From: an uncultured Verrucomicrobiae bacterium
GTDB taxonomy: Bacteria > Verrucomicrobiota > Verrucomicrobiia > Limisphaerales > Palsa-1400
Direction: 5' to 3'
Assembly (NCBI GenBank): GCA_963764165.1
Contig: CAVXRD010000002.1
Location: 704,001 to 768,000, forward strand
DNA: 64,000 nucleotides
Part shown: positions 19,077 to 54,517 of the stretch, piece after piece
How positions within the stretch are numbered: the stretch's first letter is position 1
Layout: each line of letters opens with the position of its first letter
Position numbers and translations under genes: made by a program
Notes under the pieces: model-generated
Database searches by the model: none
The model's input: the letters and a program-made list of their open reading frames with translations, nothing else
What the model was told of the DNA's origin: nothing

Positions 19077-19224
19077 CGTTTTTAGTTGGCACAGCGCCTG
19101 ATCCCCTGTAGAGTCCGAGTTATTCACCATTGTTCTCCTTGAAAGCAGTCATTTGCCTTTAGCCGGCACACCTGAGCCCGTCCAAGCGACCGAGCCGGCC
19201 CGCAATTCAGAACCAGTTCATCCC

Positions 19225-27264: not shown

Positions 27265-27301
27265 TGACCCTATCGGGTTGCAAACGGATAGACCGATCCA
27301 A

Positions 27302-28228: not shown

Positions 28229-28274
28229 ATTGCCGTCTCCATGCCCAGTGCCTATAAAATAAGAATTCGATAGA

Positions 28275-30727: not shown

Positions 30728-30760
30728 ACGAAGTTTTTAAATTTGTTCAGCGCCGGCGCT

Positions 30761-30789
30761 GGCCACTCACGATGTGGCCTTTTCTTTTT
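30761..30789 (+). terminator. Putative intrinsic terminator
   Basis: GGCCAC-TCACGAT-GTGGCC hairpin followed by TTTTCTTTTT. Confidence 0.5.
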
Positions 30790-30867
30790 GCGCCTGAAAC
30801 TGGAGCGCAAAGATTCGAGATTCAAAATGTTGCCCAATGCCCGCAATTCATTCTAAATTCTTGAGAG

Positions 30868-33113: not shown

Positions 33114-33131
33114 TGTCCGCGTCCGAAAGAA

Positions 33132-34343: not shown

Positions 34344-34361
34344 AATTACGTTCTAGAACCG

Positions 34362-35561: not shown

Positions 35562-35599
35562 GCTTCGCCGGCTCACAATGAGGCTCTCTTTTGGAAACG

Positions 35600-36709: not shown

Positions 36710-36748
36710 CCTGCGATTTGCCTGCGCCCCAGACTGCCTCTTAGTGCC

Positions 36749-38092: not shown

Positions 38093-39304
38093 CTACCGCA
38101 GGTGGGAAAAGATCTCCTTCATTTGAGGGAATGTGTTGGCGAACAAAAAGAAAGTGGCGGCGCAATAGCAGAAGGTGATCACCACGGCGGCCGCGTGAAT
38201 CCACGGATTTGCGTTATATGCCTTGAAGCCGTCACGCCCCAGCCAGCGCTTGAGGCCAATCGTGTAATAGTGATGGGTTACAAAGCCAAGCGCGTGGGCG
38301 GCGCCGAAGGCGGCATAATTCCAGCCCACCCCGTGCCAGATGCCCACCAGGAGAAATACCACCACAATGGTTAGCGCCACGGCGTGATTGACGCTTTTCG
38401 GCCCCAAGACGCCGACCAGCCATTTTGACAAAGGGGTAAATACGACATCGCGCATGTACTGCGAAAGGGTGATATGCCAGCGATTCCAAAAATCCTTGAG
38501 ATTTCGCGCGGCGATGGGCTCGTCGAAATTCTCGTCCACGGGGAAGCCCATCAAGCCGGCCAGCCCAATCGCCATATCGCAAAAGCCGGAAAAATTGCAG
38601 TAGAGGTAAAGGTAGTAAAAAATGGCGGCCACCTGCAAATCCACCCACGGATGAAAATGATCGTCAAACAAAAGATTGGCATAGATTAGCTGGAAGCAAA
38701 CGTTCCCGATGAATTTATATTTTACAAAACCGATCAAGATGCGCAGCGCAGCGCGGCCCCAATCGATCACGGGCGGCTGATCCCCGAAGGCGCGCTGATA
38801 CTGGCTGAGCGGGCTGATTGGCCCCACCGTCAAGGTGGGCACAAAAAAGCAAAAGCCCGCGTACTTCCAGAATCCCGGCACCGGGACCGAGCCGCTGCGA
38901 ACCTCCAGCACCAGGCGGCTGCTCCGAAAAGCCATGTAGGAAAGGCCGATCAAAAGCGGTCCGTAGCGCAGGACGCTTCCCGAATAGACAGCAGAGCTGG
39001 TCGGAACGTAACGAACCAAAACCAAGGCCAGCAGCGGAACAGAAAAAGCAATCCACGGCAGCCAGCCTCCTTTTCCAACGAAGACGCGCAGGGCCGCATA
39101 CTGCAATGCGATCAGCGCCACATAAGCCGCAAAGGCCAAAGCATGCTGGCGGTCCTCCTTGTAAAACCAAAAAAAATAGACTGCGGCCACATTCAAAATG
39201 CCGAAAGCAGCCTCCCTCCACAGGCCCCGGAGCTTTTTCATGACCAGGCATCCAACCAACAGGTAGGTCAAAATCTCAACCCGCAAACTGATTTGTTGAT
39301 GCAT
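38093..39304 (-). CDS. MBOAT O-acyltransferase (DltB/AlgI-like)
   Basis: GLSYMAFR, LTVGPI, LYCNFSGFCDMAIG, ENFDEP, DFWNRWHITLS and LLVGIWHG (catalytic His). Confidence 0.93.
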   Translation of the reverse strand: MHQQISLRVEILTYLLVGCLVMKKLRGLWREAAFGILNVAAVYFFWFYKEDRQHALAFAAYVALIALQYAALRVFVGKGGWLPWIAFSVPLLALVLVRYVPTSSAVYSGSVLRYGPLLIGLSYMAFRSSRLVLEVRSGSVPVPGFWKYAGFCFFVPTLTVGPISPLSQYQRAFGDQPPVIDWGRAALRILIGFVKYKFIGNVCFQLIYANLLFDDHFHPWVDLQVAAIFYYLYLYCNFSGFCDMAIGLAGLMGFPVDENFDEPIAARNLKDFWNRWHITLSQYMRDVVFTPLSKWLVGVLGPKSVNHAVALTIVVVFLLVGIWHGVGWNYAAFGAAHALGFVTHHYYTIGLKRWLGRDGFKAYNANPWIHAAAVVITFCYCAATFFLFANTFPQMKEIFSHLR

Positions 39305-39308
39305 TTCC

Positions 39309-39440
39309 TCAGAATCCTCCGTAAACGATCTTGATGCCGCTGAACAGGTCCGCGGAAGCGGCTATTAACAGAGCGGTGAAAAGGCACAACAGAACAACCG
39401 CCGCGTAAATCAATGTCTCAAAATTTAACTTGCTCTTCAT
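39309..39440 (-). CDS. 43-aa DltX-like single-TM acyl-shuttle peptide (absent from ORF track)
   Basis: Hand translation MKSKLNFETLIYAAVVLLCLFTALLIAASADLFSGIKIVYGGF*. It overlaps the upstream gene end, stops 4 bp before the MBOAT ATG, and ends in a hydrophobic-hydrophobic-Y-x-x-F hexapeptide. Confidence 0.85.
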   Translation of the reverse strand: MKSKLNFETLIYAAVVLLCLFTALLIAASADLFSGIKIVYGGF

Positions 39441-40506
39441 AAAGCTTTGCCAGGGAAGGCGCCATCACGCGCGTGAAAAACTCCTGTCCGTTCTGATTTA
39501 AGTGTTCGAAATTATAAAAGAACCTCGGCACATCGTCCTGAGATATCCCCTTGAATAAGTGGCTGGGTGCAATCCCCATCATAATCAAATGGGAGCCGAA
39601 TCGATCCGGCCAAAAAGTCGGCTCGTCGATTACCGGCCTGCCTGTTTCCTCCCCTTGCGGCATGTGAAGGAAAACCAGTTTAACATGGTGCTGCTCCGCC
39701 AGGGCGCCGATCTTTTTCGCAAAGGCATCCTGCATGGTCGAAATGGGGGAGGTCGAGAAGCGGAACGCGTCCTTCGTGGCGCTCGAATAAACGCAAACAT
39801 CCGTTTCCTTCGCCTCGGGCTCGGGCGTGAAATCCTCGAATCGCCCGCCGGATCTCAGACGAATCGCCAAGGATCCCAAATGATCTGCCGGGCTCGCCAC
39901 ATTGGTGAAAGATCCCCAGCCAATCTCCGCCGACGGAATAACAGGGAGATTCGTTCGCGCCAGACTCAACAGGCTTCGCGGCATCCCAAGAATGGAACTG
40001 GAATAAAACGTTACCTTCGATGCGAGTGTGAGGCCGTCCAGATCCCCGGCATTATCCGCGAACCGGAAAAGAAAGGGGGCCCGCCTGTGAGCCACGTTGC
40101 CGCCGCCTGTGCTGCAATCGCAAATGACGATCATCCGCGCCCGGCGATGCTCAAGCAAATCTTTCATGATGAAGTACATCGCATCATAACCGGGCCCGTT
40201 CCAGCAGAGCGACCTTGCCACCGCCTTGCGCCCCAGGCGCTCGGAGAGCTGTTTTTCCACCTGCGGAACATCGATGCCCCACCACATTCTTGACGAACCC
40301 ATAAAGGCCACGTCGATATCCCCTTTCTCCTCAAAAATCTGATCGTGAAGATATGGGAACGAGCCCGCTCCCCAGGACAGGGATGAATAAATCTCTTCGC
40401 GCGAGGGCAAAAAGGAGCGCCGCATCACGACAGGCAGCAAAAGAATCGCTGCCAGGATGAAGACAAACGCGCCGGCTTGGCGAGTCGAGGAGAAAGCAGG
40501 CCTCAT
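39418..40506 (-). CDS. DltD/AlgJ-like membrane-anchored SGNH-type acyltransferase
   Basis: N-terminal TM helix; VAFMGSS nucleophile block; C-terminal FYNFEHLNQNG. ATG at 40506 overlaps the ACP stop (TGATG). Confidence 0.7.
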   Translation of the reverse strand: MRPAFSSTRQAGAFVFILAAILLLPVVMRRSFLPSREEIYSSLSWGAGSFPYLHDQIFEEKGDIDVAFMGSSRMWWGIDVPQVEKQLSERLGRKAVARSLCWNGPGYDAMYFIMKDLLEHRRARMIVICDCSTGGGNVAHRRAPFLFRFADNAGDLDGLTLASKVTFYSSSILGMPRSLLSLARTNLPVIPSAEIGWGSFTNVASPADHLGSLAIRLRSGGRFEDFTPEPEAKETDVCVYSSATKDAFRFSTSPISTMQDAFAKKIGALAEQHHVKLVFLHMPQGEETGRPVIDEPTFWPDRFGSHLIMMGIAPSHLFKGISQDDVPRFFYNFEHLNQNGQEFFTRVMAPSLAKLYEEQVKF

Positions 40507-40751
40507 CAGCCTCCCTCCGCGCGCTTGAGAATTAAATCCGCAAATTCCCCGATGTTCTTCGTCGTTTCCACTTCTCCAACTCGAAAGCGGATGGAAAATG
40601 CCTTTTCCACCGAGACAACGAGCGAGATGTGAATAAGTGAATCCCACTCGGGCACGTCCTTGGCCGAAAGCGCAGGAGTCAATACCACCGGCTCCAGAAA
40701 TACGTTGTCGAAAACACCTTGCAATTTCGCGATAACGTCAGATTGATTCAT
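40506..40751 (-). CDS. Acyl carrier protein
   Basis: 81 aa, acidic, DVPEWDSLIH phosphopantetheine site, VEKAFSIRF. Confidence 0.92.
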   Translation of the reverse strand: MNQSDVIAKLQGVFDNVFLEPVVLTPALSAKDVPEWDSLIHISLVVSVEKAFSIRFRVGEVETTKNIGEFADLILKRAEGG

Positions 40752-42606
40752 AAGCTCGGGAGGTAATTTTAATATGGGTGGGAATGGGCGCTGCGCTCTC
40801 CAGCGCCAACTCAAAAGTTCGGCGCCCCGGATTCTCCGCGACCAAGGCAAAGCCCATGCGGGTATAAAAATCCCGCACCATCTCATTCTTGGCCGTAGGC
40901 AAATAGATGCCCTCAAGCCGGGTGCAATCTCTCTTCTTCGCCAATCGCACCAATTCATTGAGAACTTCTTCTTCGACCTGCCGTTTAAGAACCCGGCAGC
41001 TCATAAGCCATGTGTCGATCTCCAAAGTCGAGCCGGAGCGGTGCCCAACGACAATGGAAATCAGTCCGTGATCCCCAAAGCGATCCTTGAGACGGACTGA
41101 GAATCCAACATAATCAGGATCGAGCATGAGCGCCTCGATTTCGGCCTCGGTGCGGCGCCGGGTGGTCAAGTTGAATTGATTGCTCTTGTTGATGAGCTGC
41201 GCAAGCCGCGGAACATCGAGCTTCGTGAATTCGCTGATCGCCGCCTCCATCTCGAGCGACTTCAGATACGAATCCATGTCCGTCACGGAAGCTTCAAGCG
41301 CCTTGCGCTGGGCGTCAGAACGGTATTGGCCCGTGCGCTCGGCGTCCTCGGAAGTGATGCTGCGCGGCTCGAACAACCGGCAATCGGCCAGCTGGCTGAC
41401 GTAGCCGGCCGGGTCCGGTCCAAGCAGAATGGTCGTCACTTCCGGGGCAAACTGGCGCACAATTTCAATTTCGGCCGGGTTGTCATCCACGAACACAAAG
41501 CTATCCAGCCCCAGGTTCAATTCCGCCGCCATCCTCCGCAGATTGTCCGACTTGGGATCCCAGTTGGCCTTGAAGGAAACAATATCGCTCATCCGCAAAA
41601 TCATTTCAGGATGTTTCTCAAACGCTTCCGCCGCCCTGGCATGGTCATTCTTGCTCACGACGGCCAGCAAGACGCCGCGCTGTTGAAGCGAGGCGATGTA
41701 TTTCTGAAATGCTTTGAACGCTTCGCCGCGCGGAGAGGTATCGCCCAGTTCAATGCCCTCCAGTCCATCATCCGCCACCACGCCGCCCCAGAGGGTGTTA
41801 TCCAAATCAAGCGCCAGCACTTTCTTGGGCGAGCGTTTGAGCGAGGCAATCAGATGGGCCGTTTCACGCGCAAATTCCACCAGCAACGCCGAGGAGCAAG
41901 GCTGTTTGCTTTCGAACCAGCCGCGCTCATCGCGCGCGTTCAAGCCGCCGCAGCGATTCGCCAAAAATTCCAGGTCGCACATGTGGACGTAGGCCGGGGC
42001 GTTGAGCCCCAGCTCCATGTTGACCCATTTGCGGAAATTCCAATCCGAACCCATCGTTCTTCCCCGGAACGCGCCCAGGTCATGGTGGGCGGGCAAAATG
42101 AAATTGGAAACGATCACCTCAGCGCCCGTCCGATTATGAGCCTGCCGGGCCAGCTCCAGAATTGACTGCGCCACCTGGCTGGCGGCGGCTTGCTGCGCTT
42201 CCCGCGAATCCGTCAGGCGCCCCTGATAGCGGCACCTCTGCTCGGAGGGCATCAGCAAAACAACTTCCGGCGCAAAAGAATAAAGGCCGCTGGCCTCATC
42301 CATGATTTCAGAAATATAGTTGTCAAAATCGCCCCGCCAAAACTCGCAGGGAGTCCCCTGCATCTCGCACAAGTGCTCGAGCAATTCGTGGAAGGGATAA
42401 AGACTGTAACCGCCCACGATGGCCAATTTTAACTGCTTTCGCAAAGGTGTCGGCCGGGCAATTTCGCGCGAGTAGGCCTTTTTCCGCCAATTCGACAACG
42501 AAAACAGTTCGTCAAAATATTTTGCCGTGCGGGTGTAATCTTCCAGGCAGCCCCAAACCGCAGGATCGCGCTGCAAAAGAAGGGTTTTGATGTTGCCTAT
42601 TTCCAT
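40738..42606 (-). CDS. FkbH-like HAD-IIIC protein (glyceryl-ACP loader) with N-terminal extension and C-terminal GNAT-like part
   Basis: LALDLDNTLWGG, VSKN, NWDPKS, FVDDNPAE, KSNQFN, DRFGDHG and LMSCRVL. Confidence 0.93.
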   Translation of the reverse strand: MEIGNIKTLLLQRDPAVWGCLEDYTRTAKYFDELFSLSNWRKKAYSREIARPTPLRKQLKLAIVGGYSLYPFHELLEHLCEMQGTPCEFWRGDFDNYISEIMDEASGLYSFAPEVVLLMPSEQRCRYQGRLTDSREAQQAAASQVAQSILELARQAHNRTGAEVIVSNFILPAHHDLGAFRGRTMGSDWNFRKWVNMELGLNAPAYVHMCDLEFLANRCGGLNARDERGWFESKQPCSSALLVEFARETAHLIASLKRSPKKVLALDLDNTLWGGVVADDGLEGIELGDTSPRGEAFKAFQKYIASLQQRGVLLAVVSKNDHARAAEAFEKHPEMILRMSDIVSFKANWDPKSDNLRRMAAELNLGLDSFVFVDDNPAEIEIVRQFAPEVTTILLGPDPAGYVSQLADCRLFEPRSITSEDAERTGQYRSDAQRKALEASVTDMDSYLKSLEMEAAISEFTKLDVPRLAQLINKSNQFNLTTRRRTEAEIEALMLDPDYVGFSVRLKDRFGDHGLISIVVGHRSGSTLEIDTWLMSCRVLKRQVEEEVLNELVRLAKKRDCTRLEGIYLPTAKNEMVRDFYTRMGFALVAENPGRRTFELALESAAPIPTHIKITSRAYESI

Positions 42607-42729
42607 TTATTTCAATGAGTTTTTCGCGATTAACGAGCAAGACAGTCTCGCTCTGACGCTATCAATCGGCAAACCACGGCGCAAGTTCATTCGCCGTGAA
42701 ATGCCGTGATTTCCGGCGCCAAAAAATTC

Positions 42730-42811
42730 AAACAGGAGCAAGACCCAGGGCGCGGAGGTGGAAAATCAAGAAGGGATTTTTTCCCTGCGCTCTCGGTTTT
42801 TCTCCCTGTTT
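42730..42811. repeat. Imperfect palindromic intergenic element (AAACAGGAG family)
   Basis: AAACAGGAGCAAGACCCAGGGCGCGG pairs imperfectly with CTGCGCTCTCGGTTTTTCTCCCTGTTT. Confidence 0.6.
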
Positions 42812-42841
42812 ATTTTCAAAGGCCCGGGGCCGATTCAATCC

Positions 42842-45838
42842 TCATTGCTGCATGACACGGTAGAAGAGACGATTGCTCACGCCGCTGCCGCTGTCGGTAA
42901 AATTGAAAAAAGGGCCGCTGAACACGGCGGATGGGATGCCGCTCCAATGGATGAGATCGGTCGAGGATTGCACAACGTAATTCGTGCCCGCAACGGCGTT
43001 GGTGACTGAGAAGTGAATCGGTCCATGCGGCGGGCCGCCGAGAGAATCGGCGACAATCGTCGGCGGCTGGTAGAAAAAGAGGGAAATGACAATGTTTCCA
43101 CCCGGACTGTTCGCCGCGCCGTCGACGTCAATGTGGTAGGCGGTGTTCACCGTGACAGGGAAATCGACATGGCTTGTGAACGTGTTGTGGAGGTTGGCGT
43201 CGAAGGACGCGACAGCAGTCAAATCGTCGAGCGCGAAGCCGGTAAAAACGGCCATGCGATTGTAGAAATCGCTGGTGACATTGACGCGCAGCCATCCGTT
43301 GGTCGGCGCGGTCCAAACCCACCAAACCGTGCGGCCCGCCGCCGGCGCGTAATCGACGATGCCGACGTTGGCGCCGAGGAGCGGTTCACCCGGCTCGGCG
43401 GAGGCATCGACGTTGTTGTTGGTGCCCGAGGCGATGTATCCGCTCAGGACGGCCGCGTTGGAGAAGCTGTCGCTGGCCGGAGGCGTGCCGGTGCCGATAT
43501 TTAAATTGATCGTGCCGGAGGCTGCGTTGTAGCCGAGCACGGCGATGTGATACGTAACTCCCGCCTGGGCAAGAATAGGCAAAACGCTGTTGGTTGGATT
43601 GGCGACGGGCGCACCGACACCGCCCAAGGTTGCCAGCGTGTCGTTGGTGAAAACTTCGAGGTCGGTAAAGAACGAACTGCCGAGCGTGCTGATGACCACG
43701 TTGCCACTGACGGGCGCAGTCCAACTCCACCACACCGAGCGGTCAGCCCCGTAATCGGACGGCTCGCCCGGCTCAAGGGTGGTGTTGGTGTTGGAGCCCG
43801 TGGCGCTGACGGGAAATCCTGTCAAAACAATACTGTCCGCAAAGTCATCGTTGGGCGGCTGCGAGAATGTCAGGGTCAATGAGATGCTGCCCACAGACGA
43901 ATTCTCGCCATCGACGGAAATCTGGTAGGTTGTCCCGGCGCTGACAGGGAAACGGACATCTTCAGCAGTGACCTGCGCATTGGCGTCGTAGTTGGAGGCC
44001 ACCGTCTGAAGTGTGGCCAGCGTGTTGTTATTGTAGACGGAGATCAATGGGCTGATGCCGCTGTAGGCGCCCGAAACCTCGAGCTTGCCGTTGGCCGGAG
44101 CCGTCCACGACCACCAGAGAGAATGAGCGGCGGGAGCATTGCCGTGCGGGGGCTCGCCGGGCTCCGCGGTGGCGGCGGAATTGTTAGCTTGAACGGTCAT
44201 GCGCGCCTCGGAGAGAGCAACACGATTGGCGTAATTGTCATTGCCGTTGATCGATCCCGTTTCGCTGAATTCAGCCAGCAGCGCGTCGGACCAGCCATCA
44301 CCGTAAATCGGTTGGAAGGCATCGGGTGTCGTGGGATAATACGCTGCGAATGAATACGGCGAATCGATGGCCAGCCCGGTAGAGCCAATAACAAAGACAT
44401 TGCCATTGCCAACGCAGGCCACGCCGCCGCAGCCGACCTGATAACTGTTGGCCAGATACCGAAGATAAAGATTGGTGGAACCTGTCGGATCGAGCTTTGA
44501 GACGTAGGCGGCGAAATTGCCTGAAAGCGTGTTGGCGGGGTCTGTTCCCACCGGCGCATCGTAAGACGACGATTGTCCGCAGACATACGCGTTGCCGGAA
44601 GGATCCAGCGCCAACCCGGCGAGGGTCGGGTAGATGTAGCCCTGGGACGCATACACCGGTTCGCGCATGTCCTCCGAGCCGCTGCCGCCGAGATAGGTCG
44701 CGTAGCGCAATGTCGTTCCTGTGGGATCGAGTTTCGCAACGAAAGCGTCCCAATTTCCGCCGCCGTAATTTGGCTGCGGGGCGTTGGTCGTGACGGGAAA
44801 ATTCGTCGCGGACGTCTGGCCAAAAATGCAAGCGCCGCCCGCCGAATCAACCGCTACGCAGGCCGCGATGCTGGCCGCGAGATCATCGCCCGGATCGGAG
44901 CTGAGGCCGTCGCCCAGCAGCGTTACATACTGCAGCGTCCCGAAGCCGGGAGAAAGTTTGGCGATGAAGGCTTTCGTCGGTCCGTTGGTTCCGATTTGAG
45001 TAAAGGCGGCGGCGGCCGGGAGATTGGTCGACGAGGTCTGTCCCGCGATAAATACGTTGCCGGACACATCCAATGTCATGCCCATCCCAAAATCGTCGCC
45101 CTCGCCTCCCAGGAAAGTCGATGACAGCAGATGCGATCCCGTGGCATCGAACTTTGTGAGGAACATGTCGAAACCGCCGCCGAGATTCGTTTGCAACGCG
45201 TCCGGCGTCACAGGGAAATTGGTCGAGTCCGTCGAGCCAAAGACAATCGCCTCACCATTGGAATTGACCGCGATGGCGCGCGCGGCGTCCGCGCCTGATC
45301 CTGAAAGGTAGGTGCAGTAAGCGAGACTCGTTCCGTCCGCGCTGAGTTTCGCGACGAACGCCTCCAGATTGCCCCCAAGGCCGTTAACCTGAAAGGCGTT
45401 GGTCGTCGGCAAGAGGTCTCCGGCGGTGCCGGCGATATAGGCGCAGCCCGCAGCGTCCACCACAATGGCTCGGGCGCTGCACCATGGAACCAGTGTGATG
45501 TAGGAAAACGCCTTGGTTGTTGGATTGAACTTGGCGACAAACGAACCCTGGGTGGCGTTCGTTCCCAAATAGCCGCTCGCGATACGGGCCGTAAATGGGA
45601 AATTCGTGGCCGATGACGAATAGCCTGTCAAATAAACAAACCCATCCGGCCCCGTGGTGATGGCCGCGCCGGTTTCACCGTTATCCCCGGGCGTGCCGCC
45701 CCCGAGGTAAGTTGAGTAGGCCAGGGCCGGCATCGTGGCGTTTTGGGCCTGGATCGGATGCGTGGGCGCAGCGCTGGCGAAAACCGCCAAGGCGAGAGCG
45801 GCAATTTGTCGTGGGCGGTAAATGGGAGCCAAAGCCAT
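42842..45838 (-). CDS. Secreted SBBP-type beta-propeller protein with three repeated beta-sandwich domains and the shared C-terminal domain
   Basis: Signal peptide; repeated YSTYLGG / STNFP / AFVAKL blades; three ND.F...EPGEP...WWxWTAP repeats; C-terminal YVVQSSTDLIHW...FYRV. Confidence 0.85.
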   Translation of the reverse strand: MALAPIYRPRQIAALALAVFASAAPTHPIQAQNATMPALAYSTYLGGGTPGDNGETGAAITTGPDGFVYLTGYSSSATNFPFTARIASGYLGTNATQGSFVAKFNPTTKAFSYITLVPWCSARAIVVDAAGCAYIAGTAGDLLPTTNAFQVNGLGGNLEAFVAKLSADGTSLAYCTYLSGSGADAARAIAVNSNGEAIVFGSTDSTNFPVTPDALQTNLGGGFDMFLTKFDATGSHLLSSTFLGGEGDDFGMGMTLDVSGNVFIAGQTSSTNLPAAAAFTQIGTNGPTKAFIAKLSPGFGTLQYVTLLGDGLSSDPGDDLAASIAACVAVDSAGGACIFGQTSATNFPVTTNAPQPNYGGGNWDAFVAKLDPTGTTLRYATYLGGSGSEDMREPVYASQGYIYPTLAGLALDPSGNAYVCGQSSSYDAPVGTDPANTLSGNFAAYVSKLDPTGSTNLYLRYLANSYQVGCGGVACVGNGNVFVIGSTGLAIDSPYSFAAYYPTTPDAFQPIYGDGWSDALLAEFSETGSINGNDNYANRVALSEARMTVQANNSAATAEPGEPPHGNAPAAHSLWWSWTAPANGKLEVSGAYSGISPLISVYNNNTLATLQTVASNYDANAQVTAEDVRFPVSAGTTYQISVDGENSSVGSISLTLTFSQPPNDDFADSIVLTGFPVSATGSNTNTTLEPGEPSDYGADRSVWWSWTAPVSGNVVISTLGSSFFTDLEVFTNDTLATLGGVGAPVANPTNSVLPILAQAGVTYHIAVLGYNAASGTINLNIGTGTPPASDSFSNAAVLSGYIASGTNNNVDASAEPGEPLLGANVGIVDYAPAAGRTVWWVWTAPTNGWLRVNVTSDFYNRMAVFTGFALDDLTAVASFDANLHNTFTSHVDFPVTVNTAYHIDVDGAANSPGGNIVISLFFYQPPTIVADSLGGPPHGPIHFSVTNAVAGTNYVVQSSTDLIHWSGIPSAVFSGPFFNFTDSGSGVSNRLFYRVMQQ

Positions 45839-45896
45839 AGATATTAAGCATGGGCAAAACGAGATTGCACTGTCAATTGATAAGCAACGAACGTGT

Positions 45897-46066
45897 CGGG
45901 TGTGAGACAAAGCTCTTCATCCCGCTTTGTCTCCCAGCGCCGTAGAGGCGGGAAACCTTTGTAGAAACGATTACCAAGAGATTTCAAGCTCTCCGTCAGG
46001 AGCGGCACCTGCCGCGCCTCTGGCGCTTGGCGGCTATGCGGCATGAGGAATTCCGTCTCACACCCG
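45897..46066. repeat. 12-bp inverted repeat pair in the divergent intergenic region
   Basis: CGGGTGTGAGAC (45897-45908) and GTCTCACACCCG (46055-46066). Confidence 0.5.
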
Positions 46067-46265
46067 TTCTTCGGCACGAATCCCACTTTTTAGCAGCGCC
46101 ATTATATCACGTTCCAGCTATAACTCTGCTAACCTGGCCAAATCGGATATGCACCCGCGAAGTGCCATCTGAACATGCGCAAACTTTCTCCTTGCCTCCA
46201 AGTCGGTGCGCCTTTCATGCTGCCACCTAACTTCAAGCTGAACGCTTTGACTCGTTGCCAATGGA

Positions 46266-46697
46266 ATGGAAACCGCGCGCATTATTGATTTTGCCAATAT
46301 CTCCGAAGGGTCGGAATACGAGCACGACTACGTCATCACCACCGCGGTATTCGAGAATTTCATGCGCGCCTTCGGGGATCGCAGCCCGGTGCATGTCGAC
46401 GCCGAATATGCCAGAGGGTGCGGCTTTCTCGACGCGGTCATGCACGGTGCGATATTGAATGGGTTTGTATCGCATTTTGTCGGCATGATTTTTCCCGGCG
46501 CCAACAGCCTGCTCCTGTCCGTCGAGCTGCGCTATTTGCAGCCGTCCTACCTGGGGGATGCTTTGCGTCTCCATGCGAAGGTCGCACAGAGGCAGGAAAC
46601 GGCCCGCGTTGTCGTCCTTCACGTCCGATTTCAAAATCACACGCGCGGCGTTATGGTTGCCAACGGGCGCATCCAAGTGAAAGTCAGGGGAGCGTGA
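46266..46697 (+). CDS. MaoC/PhaJ-like hotdog dehydratase
   Basis: FGDRSPVHVD.EYA...F...VMHG (catalytic Asp/His), FPG and LRYLQPSYLGD. Confidence 0.88.
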   Translation: METARIIDFANISEGSEYEHDYVITTAVFENFMRAFGDRSPVHVDAEYARGCGFLDAVMHGAILNGFVSHFVGMIFPGANSLLLSVELRYLQPSYLGDALRLHAKVAQRQETARVVVLHVRFQNHTRGVMVANGRIQVKVRGA

Positions 46698-47404
46698 GCC
46701 GCCACACTGTCATTATCACGGGGGGCACCAAAGGCCTTGGACTGGCCACCGGCCTCGCATTTGCCCGCGCGGGGCACAGGGTCATTGCCTGGTACGCAAA
46801 GGACGAGGTGGCAGCCGAATCGGCCCGGACAGAACTGCTCCAACTCTGTCCTGATTCCCTCACACTGAAGCGCGACGCCCGGTTCGAGAACGCTGATTTT
46901 TGGACCCTTCCGGAAATCACGTCGGCCGAGAGCCTCGTTTTGATCAACAATGCCTGGGGTTCGGTCGCACCCCGCCCGTTCCATCTATCGCCGTGGGAAG
47001 ACTGCGAATCCGCTTTGATGTCTGGATTGAAAGCGGGTTGGGAATGTTCCCGGGCGGTGGTGCGTCCGATGGCCAAAGCGGGCCGGGGAGCCATCATCAA
47101 CGTGCTGACGACCACAGTGCATGGGCTTCCGCCGAAGGGATTCGCCGCCTACGCCACCGCCAAACACGCCCTGCGCGGCTTGACGCTCTCGCTCGCCTCC
47201 GAGTATTCGGCACGGGGAATTCGCATCTTTTCAGTTTCACCCGGCCTCATGCCGACGGCCCTCACCGCGGGCTGGGATCCGCGATTCATGGAGGCGGCGC
47301 GCCAGCTCGGGCAAACCAGCGACCCGTCTGCGGCCGGGCAACGGATTCTTGAATTGACCAATTCGCCGGAGACACTCGGGCGCGGTGAGGATTATTGCGT
47401 TTAG
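46694..47404 (+). CDS. SDR-family (FabG-like) ketoreductase
   Basis: ITGGTKGLG, LINNA, YATAK and VSPGLMPT; GTG start overlaps the MaoC stop (GTGA). Confidence 0.88.
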   Translation: MSRHTVIITGGTKGLGLATGLAFARAGHRVIAWYAKDEVAAESARTELLQLCPDSLTLKRDARFENADFWTLPEITSAESLVLINNAWGSVAPRPFHLSPWEDCESALMSGLKAGWECSRAVVRPMAKAGRGAIINVLTTTVHGLPPKGFAAYATAKHALRGLTLSLASEYSARGIRIFSVSPGLMPTALTAGWDPRFMEAARQLGQTSDPSAAGQRILELTNSPETLGRGEDYCV

Positions 47405-47409
47405 TGTCG

Positions 47410-47469
47410 TGTCTCACAGTTTCATGGCACCGCACGGGAGCGGTTCACCCATTCGAGGCGTGTGAGACA
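47410..47469. repeat. Short inverted repeat sharing the TGTGAGAC core
   Basis: TGTCTCACA (47410-47418) / TGTGAGACA (47461-47469). Confidence 0.4.
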
Positions 47470-47581
47470 ACATGGGCGGGATTTCTCTGCCATAACCCCA
47501 AAAAACAAAACGAGCGACATGGGGTCGCTCGTTTTGCGGAAATGCATTCCCGATTAAGGGCGCATCAAGGTTGGCTCGCGC

Positions 47582-49774
47582 CTACGCTTTGACGGAGGTC
47601 TTTTCGGCCCCCTTTTCTGAAGTCTTCTTTTCCTCTTTGCTGCCGTAGTGGCCGTAGCCGTAACCGTGGTAGTAAGAGTAGTAGTACGCGCCTCCCAGAC
47701 GGCGATGCGGGAGCAGATTCAAAACCACCCCGCTCAACGGGGCGCCGGCCCGCTTAAGCAATTGCACGGCGCGCTCCACACCTTTGCGGGAGGTCTTGTA
47801 ACCGTGAACCACCAGCATGACGGTCTGGACTCTGTCGGCCAGCAAAAGAGTGTCGCTGACCGGAAGGACTGGCGCGGTGTCAATAATGACGCGGTCGTAG
47901 TGGGCCAGGCAGTCCTTGAGCAATTGGGTGAAATCAACCTGAGAGAGCAATTCCGATGGGTTTGGAACGGACGTGCCGCTGGGCATCCAGCTAAATTTGG
48001 CGATTTCACCGTGCTGGATGCATACTTCCTCCAGCTTTTTCCGGCCCAATAAATAATCAGTCACACCGGGGAGGATGTGACGCTTGTCGGTGAAAAAGTT
48101 TTCCACCATCGGACGGCGCAAATCCATGTCGATCAGCAGAACGCGAAGCCCCTGCTGGGCCAGGCTGGCGGAAAAATTCAACGCGGTAAACGTTTTGCCT
48201 TCGCCTGGCAGTGAGCTGGTGAAAAGATATGTCCGGCGATCCTTCTCTTTTCCGAGCATGGAAACAGTCGCGCGCAGCGTGCGAAACACTTCTGCGCCGG
48301 ATGAATTGGAGTCGCCGGAGGCCACCAATTTGGCCCCCTCTTTGGGCAGCTTTGGAACCGTCCCCAACACGGGCAGTGCGAGATACTGCTCCACTTCGTC
48401 CACCGTCCTGAACGAGGTGTTCATGGCCGATAGCATAAAGCTTAGGCCAAACCCAAGCGCGAATCCGCCGAAGATCGCCAGGGCAAAAATGGCCTTGATC
48501 TTGGGCGAGGCTGGCAATTCAGGAATCAACGCCGGCTGAACCAGCTTGATGCGTTCAGGAGTGATTTTTTCCGCCACGGAGGTTTCGCCAAGGCGCTTGT
48601 AGAGCGCGTCGTATTGAAGCTTGTTCGCTTCAACCTGCCGGACGAGCACGTTATACTGCACCGCGGCATCGCTCAATTGCATCGCATTGCTTTCCGCGCT
48701 CTTTTCCTCGAGTTCCAAACCTTCCTTGGCGGTCTTGGCATTTTCGTAAGCAATCCGCAGGCCTTCTTGCGTCCGCGCCCGCGCGCGCAGCACGGTGGTG
48801 GCCAGTTGAGCCTTCAGCGCCTTCACCGATTCAGCAGCCTGGATATATTTCGGATGCTTTTCCTTATAGCGAAGACGGATCAACACAAACGAGTCCTCAG
48901 CGCGCTGAACTTCGCTGGAAGTTTGGACCACATCCGGATCAGTTGAAATCTGCGAATAAGCCATCAACGCCTCGATGTTGGTCGACATCTTCATCGCGTC
49001 ATTGTAAGCGCCCTCAGCTTGAACAAACGCGGCTTTGCTTTGGGTCAGGCGAGCACTGATGTTTTGCAATTGCGGGGTGACGATGTTCTGGTTTTCCTGC
49101 AGCGAGATGGTGCCATTCGTCCTCCGATAGTTTTGCAGATTCGTTTCCGACATTTCCAATGTCGCGCGGGCTTTGTCTGCCTCAAGCTTTAGAAACCCGC
49201 TCGCTCCGATGGTGGTGGCGCGCTGCATGGAGGCATCCTGCCCGAGATAGCTGTCCACCAAAGAGTTTGCCAGATCCGCAGCCAGGGCAGGACTCGTGTT
49301 TCGCACAGCAATATCAATCAAGCGAGTATTCCGGCGCAGCGTGGTTTTGACGTTTTTCGAAAACTCTGTGATGATTTCCTCGCGCGACACGATATTGGAT
49401 CCGTTGGTCACAGCATAGCCTTGCGCCGGGAGCAGATGATTGGTGATCAAAACCTGTTCCAGCAGCACAGGGTTGCAAAGCTTTTGAACAATGGTGTTCA
49501 AGACGTCCTGGCTTTGGGCGTCCGCATGCACGACAGCTTCGGCATCCATGATCTTGGCGTCCTGTTGTTCCACTTGAACCGTGCTCACCGCCTCATAGAT
49601 TCGGGTGGCGTGCTTGACGTAGAGCGCAGCGGCCACGACACAAAGGACAACGCAGGTCAGGATCAACCAGCCTTTATCCAGAAGCAGCCGCACCACCCCA
49701 TGCAAGTCCATGGACGAATGCGGCGTGCGAGCCTCCTGCTGTGGATTAAGGTCGAGAGGGTCGAGATTTGTCAT
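47582..49774 (-). CDS. wzc: Polysaccharide co-polymerase / BY-kinase (Wzc/GumC)
   Basis: Two TM helices with coiled-coil periplasm; EVFRTLR, GEGKT Walker A, IDMDLRRP, IIDTAP and tyrosine cluster YYYSYYHGYGYGHY. Confidence 0.93.
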   Translation of the reverse strand: MTNLDPLDLNPQQEARTPHSSMDLHGVVRLLLDKGWLILTCVVLCVVAAALYVKHATRIYEAVSTVQVEQQDAKIMDAEAVVHADAQSQDVLNTIVQKLCNPVLLEQVLITNHLLPAQGYAVTNGSNIVSREEIITEFSKNVKTTLRRNTRLIDIAVRNTSPALAADLANSLVDSYLGQDASMQRATTIGASGFLKLEADKARATLEMSETNLQNYRRTNGTISLQENQNIVTPQLQNISARLTQSKAAFVQAEGAYNDAMKMSTNIEALMAYSQISTDPDVVQTSSEVQRAEDSFVLIRLRYKEKHPKYIQAAESVKALKAQLATTVLRARARTQEGLRIAYENAKTAKEGLELEEKSAESNAMQLSDAAVQYNVLVRQVEANKLQYDALYKRLGETSVAEKITPERIKLVQPALIPELPASPKIKAIFALAIFGGFALGFGLSFMLSAMNTSFRTVDEVEQYLALPVLGTVPKLPKEGAKLVASGDSNSSGAEVFRTLRATVSMLGKEKDRRTYLFTSSLPGEGKTFTALNFSASLAQQGLRVLLIDMDLRRPMVENFFTDKRHILPGVTDYLLGRKKLEEVCIQHGEIAKFSWMPSGTSVPNPSELLSQVDFTQLLKDCLAHYDRVIIDTAPVLPVSDTLLLADRVQTVMLVVHGYKTSRKGVERAVQLLKRAGAPLSGVVLNLLPHRRLGGAYYYSYYHGYGYGHYGSKEEKKTSEKGAEKTSVKA

Positions 49775-49823
49775 ATAATGTCTGCGTATATCGGCAATTG
49801 CGGTTCAATAATAATGCTCAAGC

Positions 49824-50444
49824 TCAAAACACCTTCTCCGGGATATCGATAATGTCATCCGGCTGAATCTCGAAGGGCTTCTCTTTCGAATTCTTCGACA
49901 TTTTATCCGCATCCAAGGTATAGACTTTTTGCTGGCCGTTTTCTTTACGGCGAACCTTGACGGCCTTCGGGGAGCCAATGCGGGAATAACCGCCAGCCGT
50001 GGCAATCGCCTCCAGCAAATTCACCGGCCGGTTCGGGGGAAAATTGTAAACCCCGGGTTTTGTGACATTCCCCATGACAGAGTATTGGCGTTCCGCATAG
50101 TGCTCCACCAAAAGGTTGACTTGCGGGTTGACCAGATAATCCTTGCCGTATAAATCTTGGATGCGCTGGCGCGCCTCGCTCGCCGTCAACCCATCGACGC
50201 TGACTTGGCCCAGAAGCGGAAGCATGACCAGGCCCTTCTTGTCAATAGTCGTTTTAATCGCCAAGTCCTCCTCCTGATAAACGCTTATGGCGATGACGTC
50301 GTTTGGACTGAGCTTCCGATCTGCTTCCACCGCCGGGGCAGCGGGGGCTGATTGATCTTTGGGATCAGCAAAAAGCGTTGTGGACCAGATACTTCCAACG
50401 GAAACAAATGCAAATACTCCGATTCTGAGAATACGCGAAATCAT
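49824..50444 (-). CDS. wza: Short OPX polysaccharide export protein (Poly_export + one SLBB)
   Basis: LSPNDVIAISVY, LPLLGQV...GLT, YLVNPQV, VMGNVTKPG and AIATAGG; no lipobox Cys and no C-terminal helix. Confidence 0.88.
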   Translation of the reverse strand: MISRILRIGVFAFVSVGSIWSTTLFADPKDQSAPAAPAVEADRKLSPNDVIAISVYQEEDLAIKTTIDKKGLVMLPLLGQVSVDGLTASEARQRIQDLYGKDYLVNPQVNLLVEHYAERQYSVMGNVTKPGVYNFPPNRPVNLLEAIATAGGYSRIGSPKAVKVRRKENGQQKVYTLDADKMSKNSKEKPFEIQPDDIIDIPEKVF

Positions 50445-50619
50445 AGATAAACAACTAACAGCGTGGAATTATATACGCCGCGCGGATTATAGCAAGTTTT
50501 TTCTTACTCTCTTACCCGTGTTTTCCCTAGTGCCGATACCCCATATTAATTTCCCCGAGAAAACAACGGACCTGCTGGGCGGACGAGGTGCCGCGGTAAG
50601 CAAATTGTTTCCTTCAATT

Positions 50620-51130
50620 GGGCTCCTCAACCGGAATGTAGCGGGTCTGTAGCGGCTTTGTAGCCCCAATGTTGGGTTCCTCAACGTTTTCGGTGGAATA
50701 GAATCCGGGCACTCGGCCACGAATTAAAACGAGCGACGGGGCGGCTGCGAGCCACAGCTCGCGCCCCGTCGCGGTCGGACAGCGAAACGCTCATTTACAA
50801 CAACTTACCCATGAATGGCTTACAACTATTGGATGGCCCTGAGATGAGGCAGCGAGATTCCCCTGGATTACTGATGTCTGCACCTCCTCAGAGGTTTGGT
50901 TGCTCGCAACCGGGTTTACACGAACTTCTATTCCACTGAAAACGTGGAGGAACCCAATGTTGCCCCTTATCTCGTTGATGGTCAACCGTGTAGCGGGTGT
51001 TGCGGGTTTTTCGGGATTATATGCACATTCACAGATGTGCTCTTCCGGTGGTCCTGCGTTGGTTTCTCCAAGCGGAACTCCGGCAACGTCTGCACAGGGA
51101 TTCTCATTCCAACGAAAACGGGGAGGAGCC
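50620..51130. mobile_element. Degenerate outer element related to MITE 11320-11639
   Basis: Shares TGT(A/T)GC repeats and an identical 46-bp core (50958-51003 = 11467-11512). Right end CTCATTCCAACGAAAACGGGGAGGAGCC; left end only a GGGCTCCTCAAC remnant; no target duplication found. Confidence 0.55.
50674..50955. mobile_element. 282-bp MITE with 30-bp TIRs and 6-bp target duplication, nested in the outer element
   Basis: GGGTTCCTCAACGTTTTCGGTGGAATAGAA versus right-end reverse complement GGGTTCCTCCACGTTTTCAGTGGAATAGAA (28/30); AATGTT at 50668-50673 and 50956-50961. Confidence 0.85.
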
Positions 51131-51135
51131 TCGCA

Positions 51136-52629
51136 CTAAGGCGTGATCCGCCTGGACAGCGTGCTCAAGACGCAGCAAATGACGAGAAACAGCGTCAGAA
51201 CCGAATGCACCTGCATCGGGAAGTCAAAACACGCATGCACCATGCAACCCGCCAGCGAAAGCCACAAAAACATCGCAAAATAGCCGTTCCCATGGACGCC
51301 GCCGCTCCAAAACCAATGCGAGAAGATCAATATGAGTGAGAGAAAAATGGGCGCCGCGCCAACCCAGCCAAAAGTGATGACCGCTTCCAGCCAATCATTA
51401 TGCATGTAAGAAAGCGCCTCGTCCGAGCGCGACCGGCGATAGAGCTGGTGCATGGATTCAAATGTTCCCGGGCCGGTGCCGAAAACAGCGTTGTCCCGCG
51501 CCATGTAGTGTCCGGTTAAATAAAGCCCCGCCCGCGAATCATATCCCTCGTGAATCATTTCCATGCGGGGCGCCAGCGACTCCCATCCCAATAAAATCCC
51601 CGTTCCAACCACGGTCGTCAATACCAGCAGGATGCCCGCCTTGAGCGACCAGTGTCCCGACTTCTGGGCAGTCCACAAAATGACGGAGGACATCACCAGG
51701 TTTGCCATCAAAATCAGGAAGCCGCCGCGGCTGGCGGATATGGCCGGGCCAATCGCCATGATCGCCACACAGGGCAGCAGCATGGCAAAGCGGCTTTTCC
51801 TGGAATGGCTGTCGGCAGGCCGGCGGCGGCGCGTGGCCGACACGGAAGCCCACCAAAATCCGAGAACAGCCGTCCAAAGCAGGTTCAAATATTGCGCGGC
51901 GTTGGCGCGATACGCATAGGGGCCAAATTGCTGGACGGATTCAGTGTTGATTCGCGGCACGACCGTCCAAAGCAGCTTGTTTCCTCCTTCGACGCGCTGA
52001 ACAAGGCCTTGCATGGCGAGCGCGGCGCCATTCAGGGCCAGCAGCCAAAACAACCGCCGCAATCTCAAAGGCAGCCTCGACCCAGCTTGAAACAAAAACC
52101 CTTCCTCCTCAACCCGCTGAATTTCCCTTGGCGCCATCGTCAAAAGCCAGTCGCGCAAGGCCCAGAAAAAACCGGCCAGTCCCAGCAACTGCCAAAATTC
52201 ACCCCAAGTGCTGTCCTGGTCGTAACTATGCGGAAGCCATGGAATGGCAGGAAGATAGTCGAAGCTCCAGGCATTCGGATGGTAAACCGCCCGCGCATTG
52301 ACCGCGCTGACCAGGCAATATCCGAGAATAAGCAGGGTGCCCGCAAAAAGAAGTCCGCTGAACCATCGCTCACGCCGCAGCAGCCGTTCCGGGTTCGTGT
52401 TGGTTGAATACTGGATCCACCGCGCCGGACGATAGCCAAGAACTCGCAGAGCCTGCTTGACCAGCCACAGAAAACCCAGAACGAATCCCACGCCGTTCAT
52501 GACGTGGATGGACCACGTTTGGGTTGTCCCAAATGCCCACGGCCCAAACAATAATCCCAGATAGATCAACAACTCAGTGATCCATTCACAAACCCGGAAA
52601 ATTGTGGCAAGAGCACTGGACATCATCAA
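51136..52629 (-). CDS. O-antigen ligase-family membrane protein
   Basis: Polytopic; FGPYAYRAN, SASRGG, FGTGPGTF, HNDWLE and HACFDFPMQ. Confidence 0.85.
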   Translation of the reverse strand: MMMSSALATIFRVCEWITELLIYLGLLFGPWAFGTTQTWSIHVMNGVGFVLGFLWLVKQALRVLGYRPARWIQYSTNTNPERLLRRERWFSGLLFAGTLLILGYCLVSAVNARAVYHPNAWSFDYLPAIPWLPHSYDQDSTWGEFWQLLGLAGFFWALRDWLLTMAPREIQRVEEEGFLFQAGSRLPLRLRRLFWLLALNGAALAMQGLVQRVEGGNKLLWTVVPRINTESVQQFGPYAYRANAAQYLNLLWTAVLGFWWASVSATRRRRPADSHSRKSRFAMLLPCVAIMAIGPAISASRGGFLILMANLVMSSVILWTAQKSGHWSLKAGILLVLTTVVGTGILLGWESLAPRMEMIHEGYDSRAGLYLTGHYMARDNAVFGTGPGTFESMHQLYRRSRSDEALSYMHNDWLEAVITFGWVGAAPIFLSLILIFSHWFWSGGVHGNGYFAMFLWLSLAGCMVHACFDFPMQVHSVLTLFLVICCVLSTLSRRITP

Positions 52630-52796
52630 TCTGGAGAGTTCAACGAACCAGACTGCGAGCGCAAAGTAAAGATGAATTGGCCAGCGGGCCTCCGCAGGCG
52701 CCGGACAAAATTATTCTGCCGCTGTGTTTCGCTGAAGGTGGCAGAGAACTCTCGCCTCTGACGGACGATCGAATCGAGGACTTCGACCGCGCCTGC

Positions 52797-54281
52797 TTAA
52801 TACGCATTTTTCTGCTTTAGGAACGTCATCATCATGATTCGGAAATCAAGGCCGACGCTCCAGTTTTCGACGTACCAGATGTCATAGCGAATGCGTTCTT
52901 CCAGGCTGGTGTTGCCGCGCCAGCCATTGACTTGAGCCCATCCCGTCATTCCGGGCAGGCACGTGTGGCGCGCGTGGTAATGGGGGATCTTATACTTGAA
53001 TTGGGAGATAAGCTCCGGGCGCTCCGGGCGGGGTCCGACGAGACTCATATCGCCTTTGAGAACATTCCAGAACTGGGGAACCTCATCAATGTTCCATTTG
53101 CGCATGAAAGCGCCCACCTTCAGGCGGCGGGGGTCGTTTTCCTTGCACCATTGCGCGCCCGCCGTTTCCGCGTCCAGGCGCATGCTGCGGATTTTATACA
53201 TTTTGAAGGATTTGCCATTTCGGCCCGTGCGGTGTTGGCAATAGAAGATAGAGCCGGGCGATTCCCGATAGACGAGAAATCCAAAAATCGCAATCAACGG
53301 CGCGGCGATGGCCATGCCGACCAGCGCGCCCACTAAATCAATCATCCGCTTCAAGACGCGATTCGAGAAATAATCCAACGCCATTTCGCCAACGCCGAGA
53401 ACGGGAACACCGCTGATGGATTCCAGCCGCAGCCCGGAGGCTAGAATTTGGAAATAGGACGGAATGACCTTGAACTGCGCAAACTCCATTTCGCACAGGT
53501 TTACCAGGCCAATAATTTCTCCCATGGGCGCGTAGAGATCCGCCAAAATGACAATATCCGCCTGGCGTCGTTCCAGAAGGCCGACCAGATTCTGGTAATC
53601 ACCCAGCACTGGCACCGTTTCTGGCGGCCTGGTGTGAAGCCTGCCTTGCGGGGAGGGCACACAGCCGACAATAGTATATGGGTGGTTATCGTCTTCGCTG
53701 ATTTCCTTTTCCAGTTGGTCTGCCTCCTTGCCCCAGCCGACGAAGAGCACACGCTGGCGCAAATTAAACGCGAGCGCCTCCCAGTGGGTGATCTTAAAAA
53801 GGAGATAGCGCCAACCCAGCATCATCACCAAAAGACACACAGAAGAAGACACCATGAATGCTCGCGAGATGGGCGGATCGAACTTTAGAATCAAGCTCAC
53901 CGCCATGTAGGCGAAAAACCAGAAAATCGCCCCTTGAATCAGCACTTTGGCGGTAAGGTGAAACCGCTTGAAAATACGACGGCTATACAGCCTCAAATAA
54001 CAAAAAGTCCCCACCAAAAAAGATGTTCCGACCGCGAGGAGATTGAAGTAATCCGCAAAAATCAAATGCTCGCCCCCGTGTCCCAGCGGAATCATGCCCG
54101 AAGAAAATCGCACCCAATATCCGAGACAAAGGGAGGCGTAAATGACAACCGCATCCAAAAGAAGCGCAATCGTAAGGACAAATTCGGCAGTCGGCTGCCA
54201 GAAATACTCGCGCCGCGGGGTCGACGACGGAGCAATAGACACAGGCTCTTCTACATTAAGCACTTCGAGTTTAGCATTCAT
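52797..54281 (-). CDS. Priming polyprenyl-phosphate glycosylphosphotransferase (WcaJ/WbaP-like)
   Basis: KRMIDL, F.MYKIRSM, DPR, IDEVPQFWNVLKGDMSLVGPRPERP and PGMTGWAQVNG. Start 54281 or 54311. Confidence 0.93.
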   Translation of the reverse strand: MNAKLEVLNVEEPVSIAPSSTPRREYFWQPTAEFVLTIALLLDAVVIYASLCLGYWVRFSSGMIPLGHGGEHLIFADYFNLLAVGTSFLVGTFCYLRLYSRRIFKRFHLTAKVLIQGAIFWFFAYMAVSLILKFDPPISRAFMVSSSVCLLVMMLGWRYLLFKITHWEALAFNLRQRVLFVGWGKEADQLEKEISEDDNHPYTIVGCVPSPQGRLHTRPPETVPVLGDYQNLVGLLERRQADIVILADLYAPMGEIIGLVNLCEMEFAQFKVIPSYFQILASGLRLESISGVPVLGVGEMALDYFSNRVLKRMIDLVGALVGMAIAAPLIAIFGFLVYRESPGSIFYCQHRTGRNGKSFKMYKIRSMRLDAETAGAQWCKENDPRRLKVGAFMRKWNIDEVPQFWNVLKGDMSLVGPRPERPELISQFKYKIPHYHARHTCLPGMTGWAQVNGWRGNTSLEERIRYDIWYVENWSVGLDFRIMMMTFLKQKNAY

Positions 54282-54517
54282 GGATTGACTCAATCGGGCG
54301 CTTTTCCCCATTACTAAAATGCAGATTGGCTACGATCAGGGTTAAAACCACAAAAACCGATTGATTGGCGCCGCCCTTCACCGGATTCCAAGCTGCTTAA
54401 AGGCCCTATATAAAGCAAGGTTTCTGGCGCGGAGCCATGCTCACATGTTGCCTTGGACGCTTACAAAATGCAAGAGTTCTCTTCAAAAAAGTTGGTGCGG
54501 GAGGCGGCAGACCCCAT

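Follow-up and report, generated by a model that had tools for sequence, protein, structure and literature searches.

The occurrence of a MaoC-type dehydratase gene and an SDR ketoreductase gene side by side within a polysaccharide locus raises the question of which substrate such a pair could serve there. An earlier note on this DNA had proposed that the two enzymes, acting as free-standing counterparts of polyketide synthase (PKS) loading domains, convert glyceryl-ACP into lactyl-ACP and in this way feed an MBOAT that acylates a cell-surface glycan. The analysis was carried out on a 64,000-nt stretch of DNA (the window, with all positions counted from its first letter), together with the remainder of its genome and related loci from other genomes. 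With moderate confidence, we favor the reading that the pair represents the last two genes of a conserved seven-gene operon, here detached from the rest, and that it likely turns glyceryl-ACP into lactyl-ACP, from which a Dlt-like relay would then esterify a surface glycan. The features under discussion are as follows.

46266..46697, plus strand: MaoC-type single hot-dog dehydratase, 143 aa (PF01575), predicted glyceryl-ACP dehydratase
46694..47404, plus strand: SDR ketoreductase, 236 aa (PF00106), predicted pyruvoyl-ACP reductase, likely NADPH-dependent
40738..42606, minus strand: FkbH glyceryl transferase/phosphatase, 622 aa (TIGR01686), predicted loader of glycerate from 1,3-bisphosphoglycerate
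40506..40751, minus strand: dedicated acyl carrier protein (ACP; W-D-S38), 81 aa, assigned from its invariant S38 and a profile match to ACPs in the PDB
39418..40506, minus strand: DltD-like SGNH protein with an N-terminal hydrophobic helix, 362 aa, assigned from its invariant Ser and His and from Foldseek, predicted final acyltransferase
39309..39440, minus strand: unannotated DltX-like single-helix membrane microprotein, 43 aa, ending in VYGGF, predicted tyrosine acyl shuttle
38093..39304, minus strand: DltB-like MBOAT, 403 aa (PF03062), itself lacking a C-terminal shuttle motif
42842..45910, minus strand: beta-propeller (SBBP) secreted-type gene of ~3 kb (PF06739), which splits the operon and is not counted as part of it
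47582..54311, minus strand: Wzc, Wza, O-antigen-ligase/Wzy-type and WcaJ-type genes (Pfam and NCBIfam matches), candidate acceptor pathway
27230-37951: glycosyltransferase, Wzy-type and AT3 genes, the polysaccharide genes on the other side of the pair

Layout of the locus

The description of the locus in the earlier note proved accurate. The GTG start codon of the SDR gene overlaps the TGA of the MaoC gene by 4 nt (GTGA) with both reading frames intact, consistent with the coupling claimed for the two genes, and the distance to FkbH, given as 3.7 kb, is 3,660 nt from the FkbH start (42606, minus strand) to the MaoC start. The polysaccharide setting is equally clear, with Wzc, Wza and WcaJ genes on one side and glycosyltransferase, Wzy-type and AT3 genes on the other. 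The lack of a fatty-acid or PHA context also holds: tblastn gave no match to KS, FabH or NRPS/adenylation genes within the 64-kb window, and a search of the genome, which is 97% complete, turned up no class I PHA synthase. Two phosphopantetheinyl transferases are encoded elsewhere in the genome. FkbH heads a tight run in which its own gene overlaps that of the carrier and the ACP, SGNH and MBOAT genes follow, overlapping or nearly touching. The MaoC-SDR pair lies in the opposite orientation to this FkbH-ACP-MBOAT cassette, with the beta-propeller gene in between.

On either side of the beta-propeller gene lies a dispersed, partly palindromic intergenic repeat (45897-46066 and ~42715-42825); the two are different, each has many copies across the genome at ~70-90% identity, and they may be a trace of how the operon came to be split. 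Inverted repeats next to the pair were also considered as a pair-specific element, a possibility that was rejected because they belong to a dispersed genome-wide repeat. Farther along the polysaccharide genes, two tandem AT3 acyltransferases (34362-36709) have a GC content of 0.52-0.53, below that of their neighbors, and with both of them present the polymer may be acylated with several groups. Directly upstream of the glycosyltransferase run, 19153-27264 encodes a 2,703-aa protein that combines PA14, Fn3-associated and Ig domains.

A conserved operon beyond the window

Orthologues of the window MaoC were compared across 95 loci (15 GTDB loci and 80 metagenome loci retrieved with a MaoC alignment, some of them near-duplicates). 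An SDR adjoins MaoC in 76 of the 80 loci with at least 500 nt downstream, an MBOAT directly precedes it in 61 of 75 informative loci, and at least one cassette gene is present in 72 of the 75 loci with at least 700 nt upstream. Among the 39 loci with at least 5 kb upstream, FkbH was found in 35 and all four cassette genes in 31, compared with cassette genes in none of 64 generic SDR loci used as a control. The co-occurrence of MaoC and SDR with FkbH-ACP-MBOAT cassettes, which the earlier note had put forward as a check on its proposal, is therefore well established in these loci. A scan of GTDB genomes with an SDR alignment yielded 80 loci, comprising 16 orthologues and 64 generic SDRs. FkbH-ACP-SGNH-MBOAT-MaoC-SDR run in one direction in 11 of the 16 orthologue loci; of the other five, two are truncated at contig ends, one shows FkbH-ACP followed by a fused MaoC-SDR, one has the pair separate from the cassette, and the last contains no more than a partial SDR. 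According to their record titles, these loci span Verrucomicrobiota, Acidobacteriota and Myxococcota. The module occurs only sporadically, in 2 of 61 related genomes including that of the window, and MaoC and SDR each define a tight family.

The usual order of the seven genes is FkbH-ACP-SGNH-microprotein-MBOAT-MaoC-SDR, and in the window the last two are split off and inverted. Given the conserved co-occurrence and order elsewhere, the window is best described as a rearranged copy of this operon, and since the pair also stands apart from its MBOAT orthologues in genome G461, such splitting recurs. Where the order is changed (L009, L107/108, L142, L147, L155 and L160), the pair remains beside FkbH and ACP, the loader and the carrier. 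The family also includes fused MaoC-SDR proteins (P0242-P0245), which resemble DH-KR didomains.

Several variants of the cassette were observed. Tandem duplications involve either two SGNH-like genes (L008, L114, L133 and L156) or a repeated MBOAT (L113 and L149), which suggests more than one acceptor site. At four loci (L161, L190, L193 and L194) FkbH-ACP-MBOAT occurs with neither MaoC nor SDR in the fetched stretch, indicating that the relay can in some cases do without the pair. One of these, L161 (5370-10404), comes from pSymB of the model organism Sinorhizobium meliloti and has an MBOAT ending in a fused FLYQGF, an unknown gene, an ACP and FkbH, which makes it a candidate for a version that adds glyceryl only. 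In two plasmid glycan loci (L163, 8215-12193; L162, 8800-13280) FkbH neighbors a MaoC-SDR fusion, and the fetched stretch contains no MBOAT; in the former a weak ACP-like match falls within the same ORF, and in the latter a WcbI-family gene lies in between. A reverse search with FkbH gave a match in 23 of 401 genomes of the phylum, with no close orthologue other than that of the window, and no DH-KR-FkbH PKS module was seen in the 20 stretches fetched out of 22 other FkbH stretches. The genome's own second FkbH is a domain within a 3,605-aa NRPS (L166, contig C3, 8739-19556) that has three condensation, two adenylation and two thioesterase domains. This FkbH was considered as the partner of the pair and rejected because of its position within that protein on another contig.

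Predicted chemistry and its alternatives

From the genes, their motifs, the conserved operon and the relationships set out below, we infer a pathway of four steps. In the first, FkbH would load glycerate from the glycolysis intermediate 1,3-bisphosphoglycerate onto the ACP, as expected from its family and intact motifs. FkbH scores 325 bits against TIGR01686 (cut-off 147) and retains the HAD aspartate motif (DLDNT at 267) and the acyl-accepting cysteine (SCR, at 537). The ACP gave no Pfam or NCBIfam match as a single sequence; its S38 is invariant in 33 aligned relatives, and its profile matched ACPs in the PDB (best E 1.4e-19) and, weakly, D-alanyl carrier proteins.

In the second step MaoC, probably as a homodimer, would remove the C3 hydroxyl and the C2 proton, and the resulting enol would tautomerise to pyruvoyl-ACP, as suggested by operon linkage and PKS precedent. 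Hot-dog dehydratases take these groups off thioesters, and glyceryl-ACP offers both. MaoC is the only PF01575 match in the genome (40 bits, over the cut-off) and carries the hydratase-2 motif (D38-x-S-P-x-H43 and H60-G61), of which D38, H43, H60 and G61 are invariant among 53 aligned relatives. In the tree its family joins two distant MaoCs that were found independently via FkbH (L196 and L165) with support of 97/97. Since FkbH is the sole loader in the operon and no condensing enzyme accompanies it, a three-carbon unit is the expected substrate.

In the third step the SDR would reduce the 2-keto group with NAD(P)H, yielding lactyl-ACP, a prediction that follows from its relation to PKS ketoreductases (KRs). 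The SDR matches PF00106 (92 bits) and is 100% identical to a 236-aa database protein, with relatives sharing its start position. It has the motif TGGTKGLG, and Y153 and K157 are invariant, with Thr or Ser at position 139, in 50 of 50. In a careful tree of 35 hand-picked rows (7 of 78 family SDRs, 25 of 97 generic SDRs and three PKS KRs on a long branch), the seven family SDRs and the three KRs split from the 25 generic SDRs at 95/89. A larger, quick tree of 61 rows shows the same split at 94, unstarred, with the SDR of cassette L165 falling outside. Likewise, the pre-tyrosine motif P-x-[GD]-[FYW]-x-x-Y-x-x-x-K, which was defined after both sets had been inspected, occurs in 73 of the 78 family SDRs and all three PKS KRs, and in none of 97 other SDRs. 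Family SDRs did not score above generic SDRs with a profile built from the three KRs, which gave the window SDR a low 21 bits. At the level of sequence, tree and motif support a relationship between the SDR and the KRs of FR901464-type and lankacidin-type DH-KR proteins.

MaoC subtypes occur within the family. The window enzyme belongs to the common S-H type, which is followed by an SDR in 60 of 61 informative loci. Another subtype, S-N...[LM]-E-L-S-V, carries Asn and Glu substitutions; it sits after the MBOAT and has an adjacent SDR in none of its three informative loci (L103, L130 and L151), so dehydratase-only operons may exist; at L130 a SAM methyltransferase takes the place of the SDR. 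The pair could accordingly act on glyceryl-ACP while the exported group is something other than lactyl, such as a pyruvoyl ester or another three-carbon acyl group made in a different order of steps. The SDR-less loci favor this alternative, as does the mention in the available text of PMC6162330 that the lankacidin starter may be pyruvoyl- or lactoyl-ACP. However, the window MaoC is of the subtype that is accompanied by an SDR, and this SDR has all of its catalytic residues and falls with the PKS KRs, so that we consider a product other than lactyl unlikely.

Ordinary FabG/PhaJ chemistry on C4 or longer acyl-CoA or acyl-ACP, for example for 3-hydroxybutyryl supply, would leave the pair merely traveling with the cassette. 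The closest solved structures point this way, being (R)-specific enoyl-CoA hydratases for MaoC and FabG for the SDR, as do the generic database names (3-hydroxybutyryl-CoA dehydratase and 3-oxoacyl-ACP reductase) and a FabH-like gene near one locus, L090. Linkage to a PHA synthase or to condensing enzymes was nevertheless not found in the genome and window, respectively, and KS/FabH/NRPS-type matches occur in only 2 of 32 long family loci. In both trees the families stand apart from the PhaJ-like and FabG-like rows, and FkbH remains the only loader in the operon. Together these observations make conventional fatty-acyl chemistry improbable. The earlier note had conceded that enzymes limited to enoyl-CoA or 3-oxoacyl substrates would speak against its proposal; as far as can be read from sequence such a limit does not appear to apply, with the SDR siding with the PKS KRs, although the best PDB matches of MaoC are enoyl-CoA hydratases.

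If lactyl-ACP is made as we propose, the MBOAT would in the fourth step pass the acyl group to Tyr40 of the microprotein, from which it would move to Ser72 of the SGNH protein and then to a sugar hydroxyl outside the membrane, by analogy with Dlt. The MBOAT scores 185 bits against TIGR04091, below the equivalog cut-off of 375, and is for this reason called DltB-like rather than DltB; its PDB matches are to DltB only (E 1e-53), and H324 and N274 are invariant in 40 of 40. Its C-terminus has no YxxF and a free microprotein is present instead, whereas in distant FkbH cassettes 7 of 7 MBOATs end in a fused F[IL]YxxF motif. The putative tyrosine shuttle motif is either fused to the MBOAT or free as a microprotein. 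In the window this hydrophobic protein (19-residue hydropathy 2.76) is encoded in the gap between the SGNH gene and the MBOAT. A similar small ORF ending in YxxF follows 49 of the 53 SGNH genes examined; the search pattern required YxxF and left V39 and G42 free, and both of these are at least 90% conserved. No member of the microprotein family matches a DltX Pfam model. The SGNH protein gave no Pfam match and nothing useful in NCBIfam and PDB sequence searches; S72 (in GSS) and H335 are invariant in 44 aligned relatives. Its predicted structure (pLDDT 91) has DltD in all of its ten best Foldseek rows (best E 2.3e-4, TM only 0.29-0.38), and one of the clusters among its atlas neighbors has DltD on 20% of its members. 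The model therefore likely has a DltD-like fold, at modest similarity.

Gellan-type glyceryl esters provide a model for the export of unmodified glycerate, which the five-gene cassette might perform here if the displaced pair is not co-expressed with it. The pair is split off and inverted, a promoter scan of 42500-47700 returned only one promoter-like site, no more than chance, and cassettes that lack the pair exist. Both ORFs are nonetheless intact, still coupled and complete in their catalytic residues, and the pair is separated in genome G461 too, leaving export of plain glycerate with only a slight probability. With regard to the acceptor, 19 of 32 long family loci have glycan genes nearby, compared with 5 of 43 controls (ABC-ATPase-only matches excluded); no glycan gene was found at the other 13 with the queries used. 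An acceptor for lactyl-ACP other than a polysaccharide hydroxyl, such as a lipid, a protein or an amino sugar (as an amide), is very improbable given this enrichment and the alcohols of polymers that are acylated by the MBOAT-SGNH pairs discussed in the consulted part of PMC12148441, even though neighborhoods vary (Wzy-type, ABC-type/GT9 or no glycan gene found) and rare amide-linked lactyl groups on bacterial polysaccharides are noted in the excerpted text of PMC9912281.

Esterification of a glycan with lactate remains our preferred reading for the window. The natural variants, namely cassettes without the pair and a MaoC subtype without an SDR, fit a modular pathway. We would extend this, with the balance of evidence about even, to a second acyl relay besides Dlt that uses a carrier and a microprotein, operates in Gram-negatives and O-lactylates surface glycans with a polyketide-type starter. 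Gene content may then set the menu: glyceryl from FkbH-ACP-MBOAT alone, pyruvoyl with the addition of only a Glu-type MaoC, and lactyl with both MaoC and SDR. The simplest version, FkbH-ACP-MBOAT, could be an explanation for glyceryl esters on exopolysaccharides.

Comparison with known systems

No description of an FkbH-ACP-SGNH-microprotein-MBOAT-MaoC-SDR operon was found in the literature searched, and the full texts and supplements of related work may list such clusters. The available portion of a bioRxiv paper on mild glycopolymer extraction names lactyl for peptidoglycan only. If the proposed pathway is correct, the acyl group would be edited on the carrier before export, linking polyketide starter chemistry to envelope biology. 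It would also point to genes that could account for hydroxy-acyl esters on bacterial glycans, and it would predict a base-labile modification of the envelope that may escape notice under harsh extraction.

Three PKS systems were used for comparison: the PKS N-terminus of Burkholderia sp. FERM BP-3421 (L211), a close Ensifer homologue, and the cluster on Streptomyces griseofuscus plasmid pSGRIFU1 (L210), in which DH-KR, ACP and FkbH are stand-alone proteins. From the strains and the gene layout, we take L211 to be Fr9C and L210 to be the lankacidin cluster. Bryostatin BryA likewise has a DH-KR-FkbH-ACP loading module. In each of the three comparison proteins a MaoC domain is accompanied by a non-catalytic second hot-dog and by an SDR, so that the FERM BP-3421 PKS N-terminus and the pSGRIFU1 DH-KR amount to MaoC plus SDR beside FkbH and ACP. 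The gene layout of these clusters is fitted by a figure legend in PMC6162330, and the accessible text of PMC4765723 describes DH-KR proteins as turning glyceryl-S-ACP into lactyl-S-ACP for FR901464 and lankacidin. A DH-MT-FkbH-ACP module is described in the available part of PMC4552970.

The window operon shares with the FR901464 (Fr9C) and lankacidin systems all four parts, namely a MaoC-type DH with catalytic Asp and His, an SDR-type KR, an ACP, and beside it an FkbH that is 35% identical to the FkbH of both systems. The KR is closer to these KRs than to FabG by tree and motif, a relation weakened by the non-discriminating profile and the unstarred 94. The first half of the PKS DH also matches PF01575, and MaoC aligns in hhalign with a probability of 94.9 to the FERM BP-3421 protein and 73.8 to the pSGRIFU1 protein. 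However, the window MaoC is a single hot-dog and groups in the tree with neither half of the double hot-dog PKS dehydratases; DH and KR are usually separate genes in the window family; and the operon has no KS or condensation domain to take the starter, its link being to an MBOAT relay. As in the window operon, the parts of the lankacidin system already stand alone, so that free-standing DH and KR are not new in themselves, and the new part is their link to the MBOAT, microprotein and SGNH relay. The earlier note's suggestion of PKS-like chemistry in free-standing enzymes that feed an MBOAT is supported by the operon linkage and the SDR-KR relationship, with the qualification that MaoC does not group with the PKS dehydratases and that the lactyl product and the acceptor are predicted.

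On the export side, the available sections of PMC12148441 describe the shuttle motif as fused to the MBOAT in PatAB, AlgIJFX and WssHIFG. These acyl-CoA-fed systems resemble the window operon in combining an MBOAT and an SGNH protein with a Tyr shuttle and in acting on Gram-negative envelope polymers, and differ from it in that the window operon has a carrier and a free microprotein. The same sections of this 2025 mechanism paper present Dlt as unique among MBOAT-SGNH pathways in using a carrier protein together with a separate microprotein as Tyr shuttle, other MBOAT/SGNH pathways having neither, and describe DltX as a membrane microprotein in which the tyrosine of a C-terminal FXYXXF carries the acyl group. 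The window operon has both a carrier and such a microprotein, in Gram-negative hosts.

Dlt (DltA, DltC, DltB, DltX and DltD), which D-alanylates teichoic acid, shares with the operon a carrier, a DltB-like MBOAT with its catalytic His, a membrane microprotein (43 aa, one helix) with an invariant C-terminal Tyr motif, and a DltD-like SGNH protein. The two differ in several respects. FkbH stands in place of the adenylation enzyme DltA, for which the window gave no NRPS/adenylation match; two tailoring enzymes are predicted to act on the carrier; the microprotein motif is VYxGF rather than FXYXXF; the hosts are Gram-negative by their record titles; and the predicted acyl group and acceptor are not those of Dlt. 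The operon is therefore a member neither of Dlt, having no DltA, nor of the PKS loading modules, having no KS and a single hot-dog; by analogy, it would work like a join of the two.
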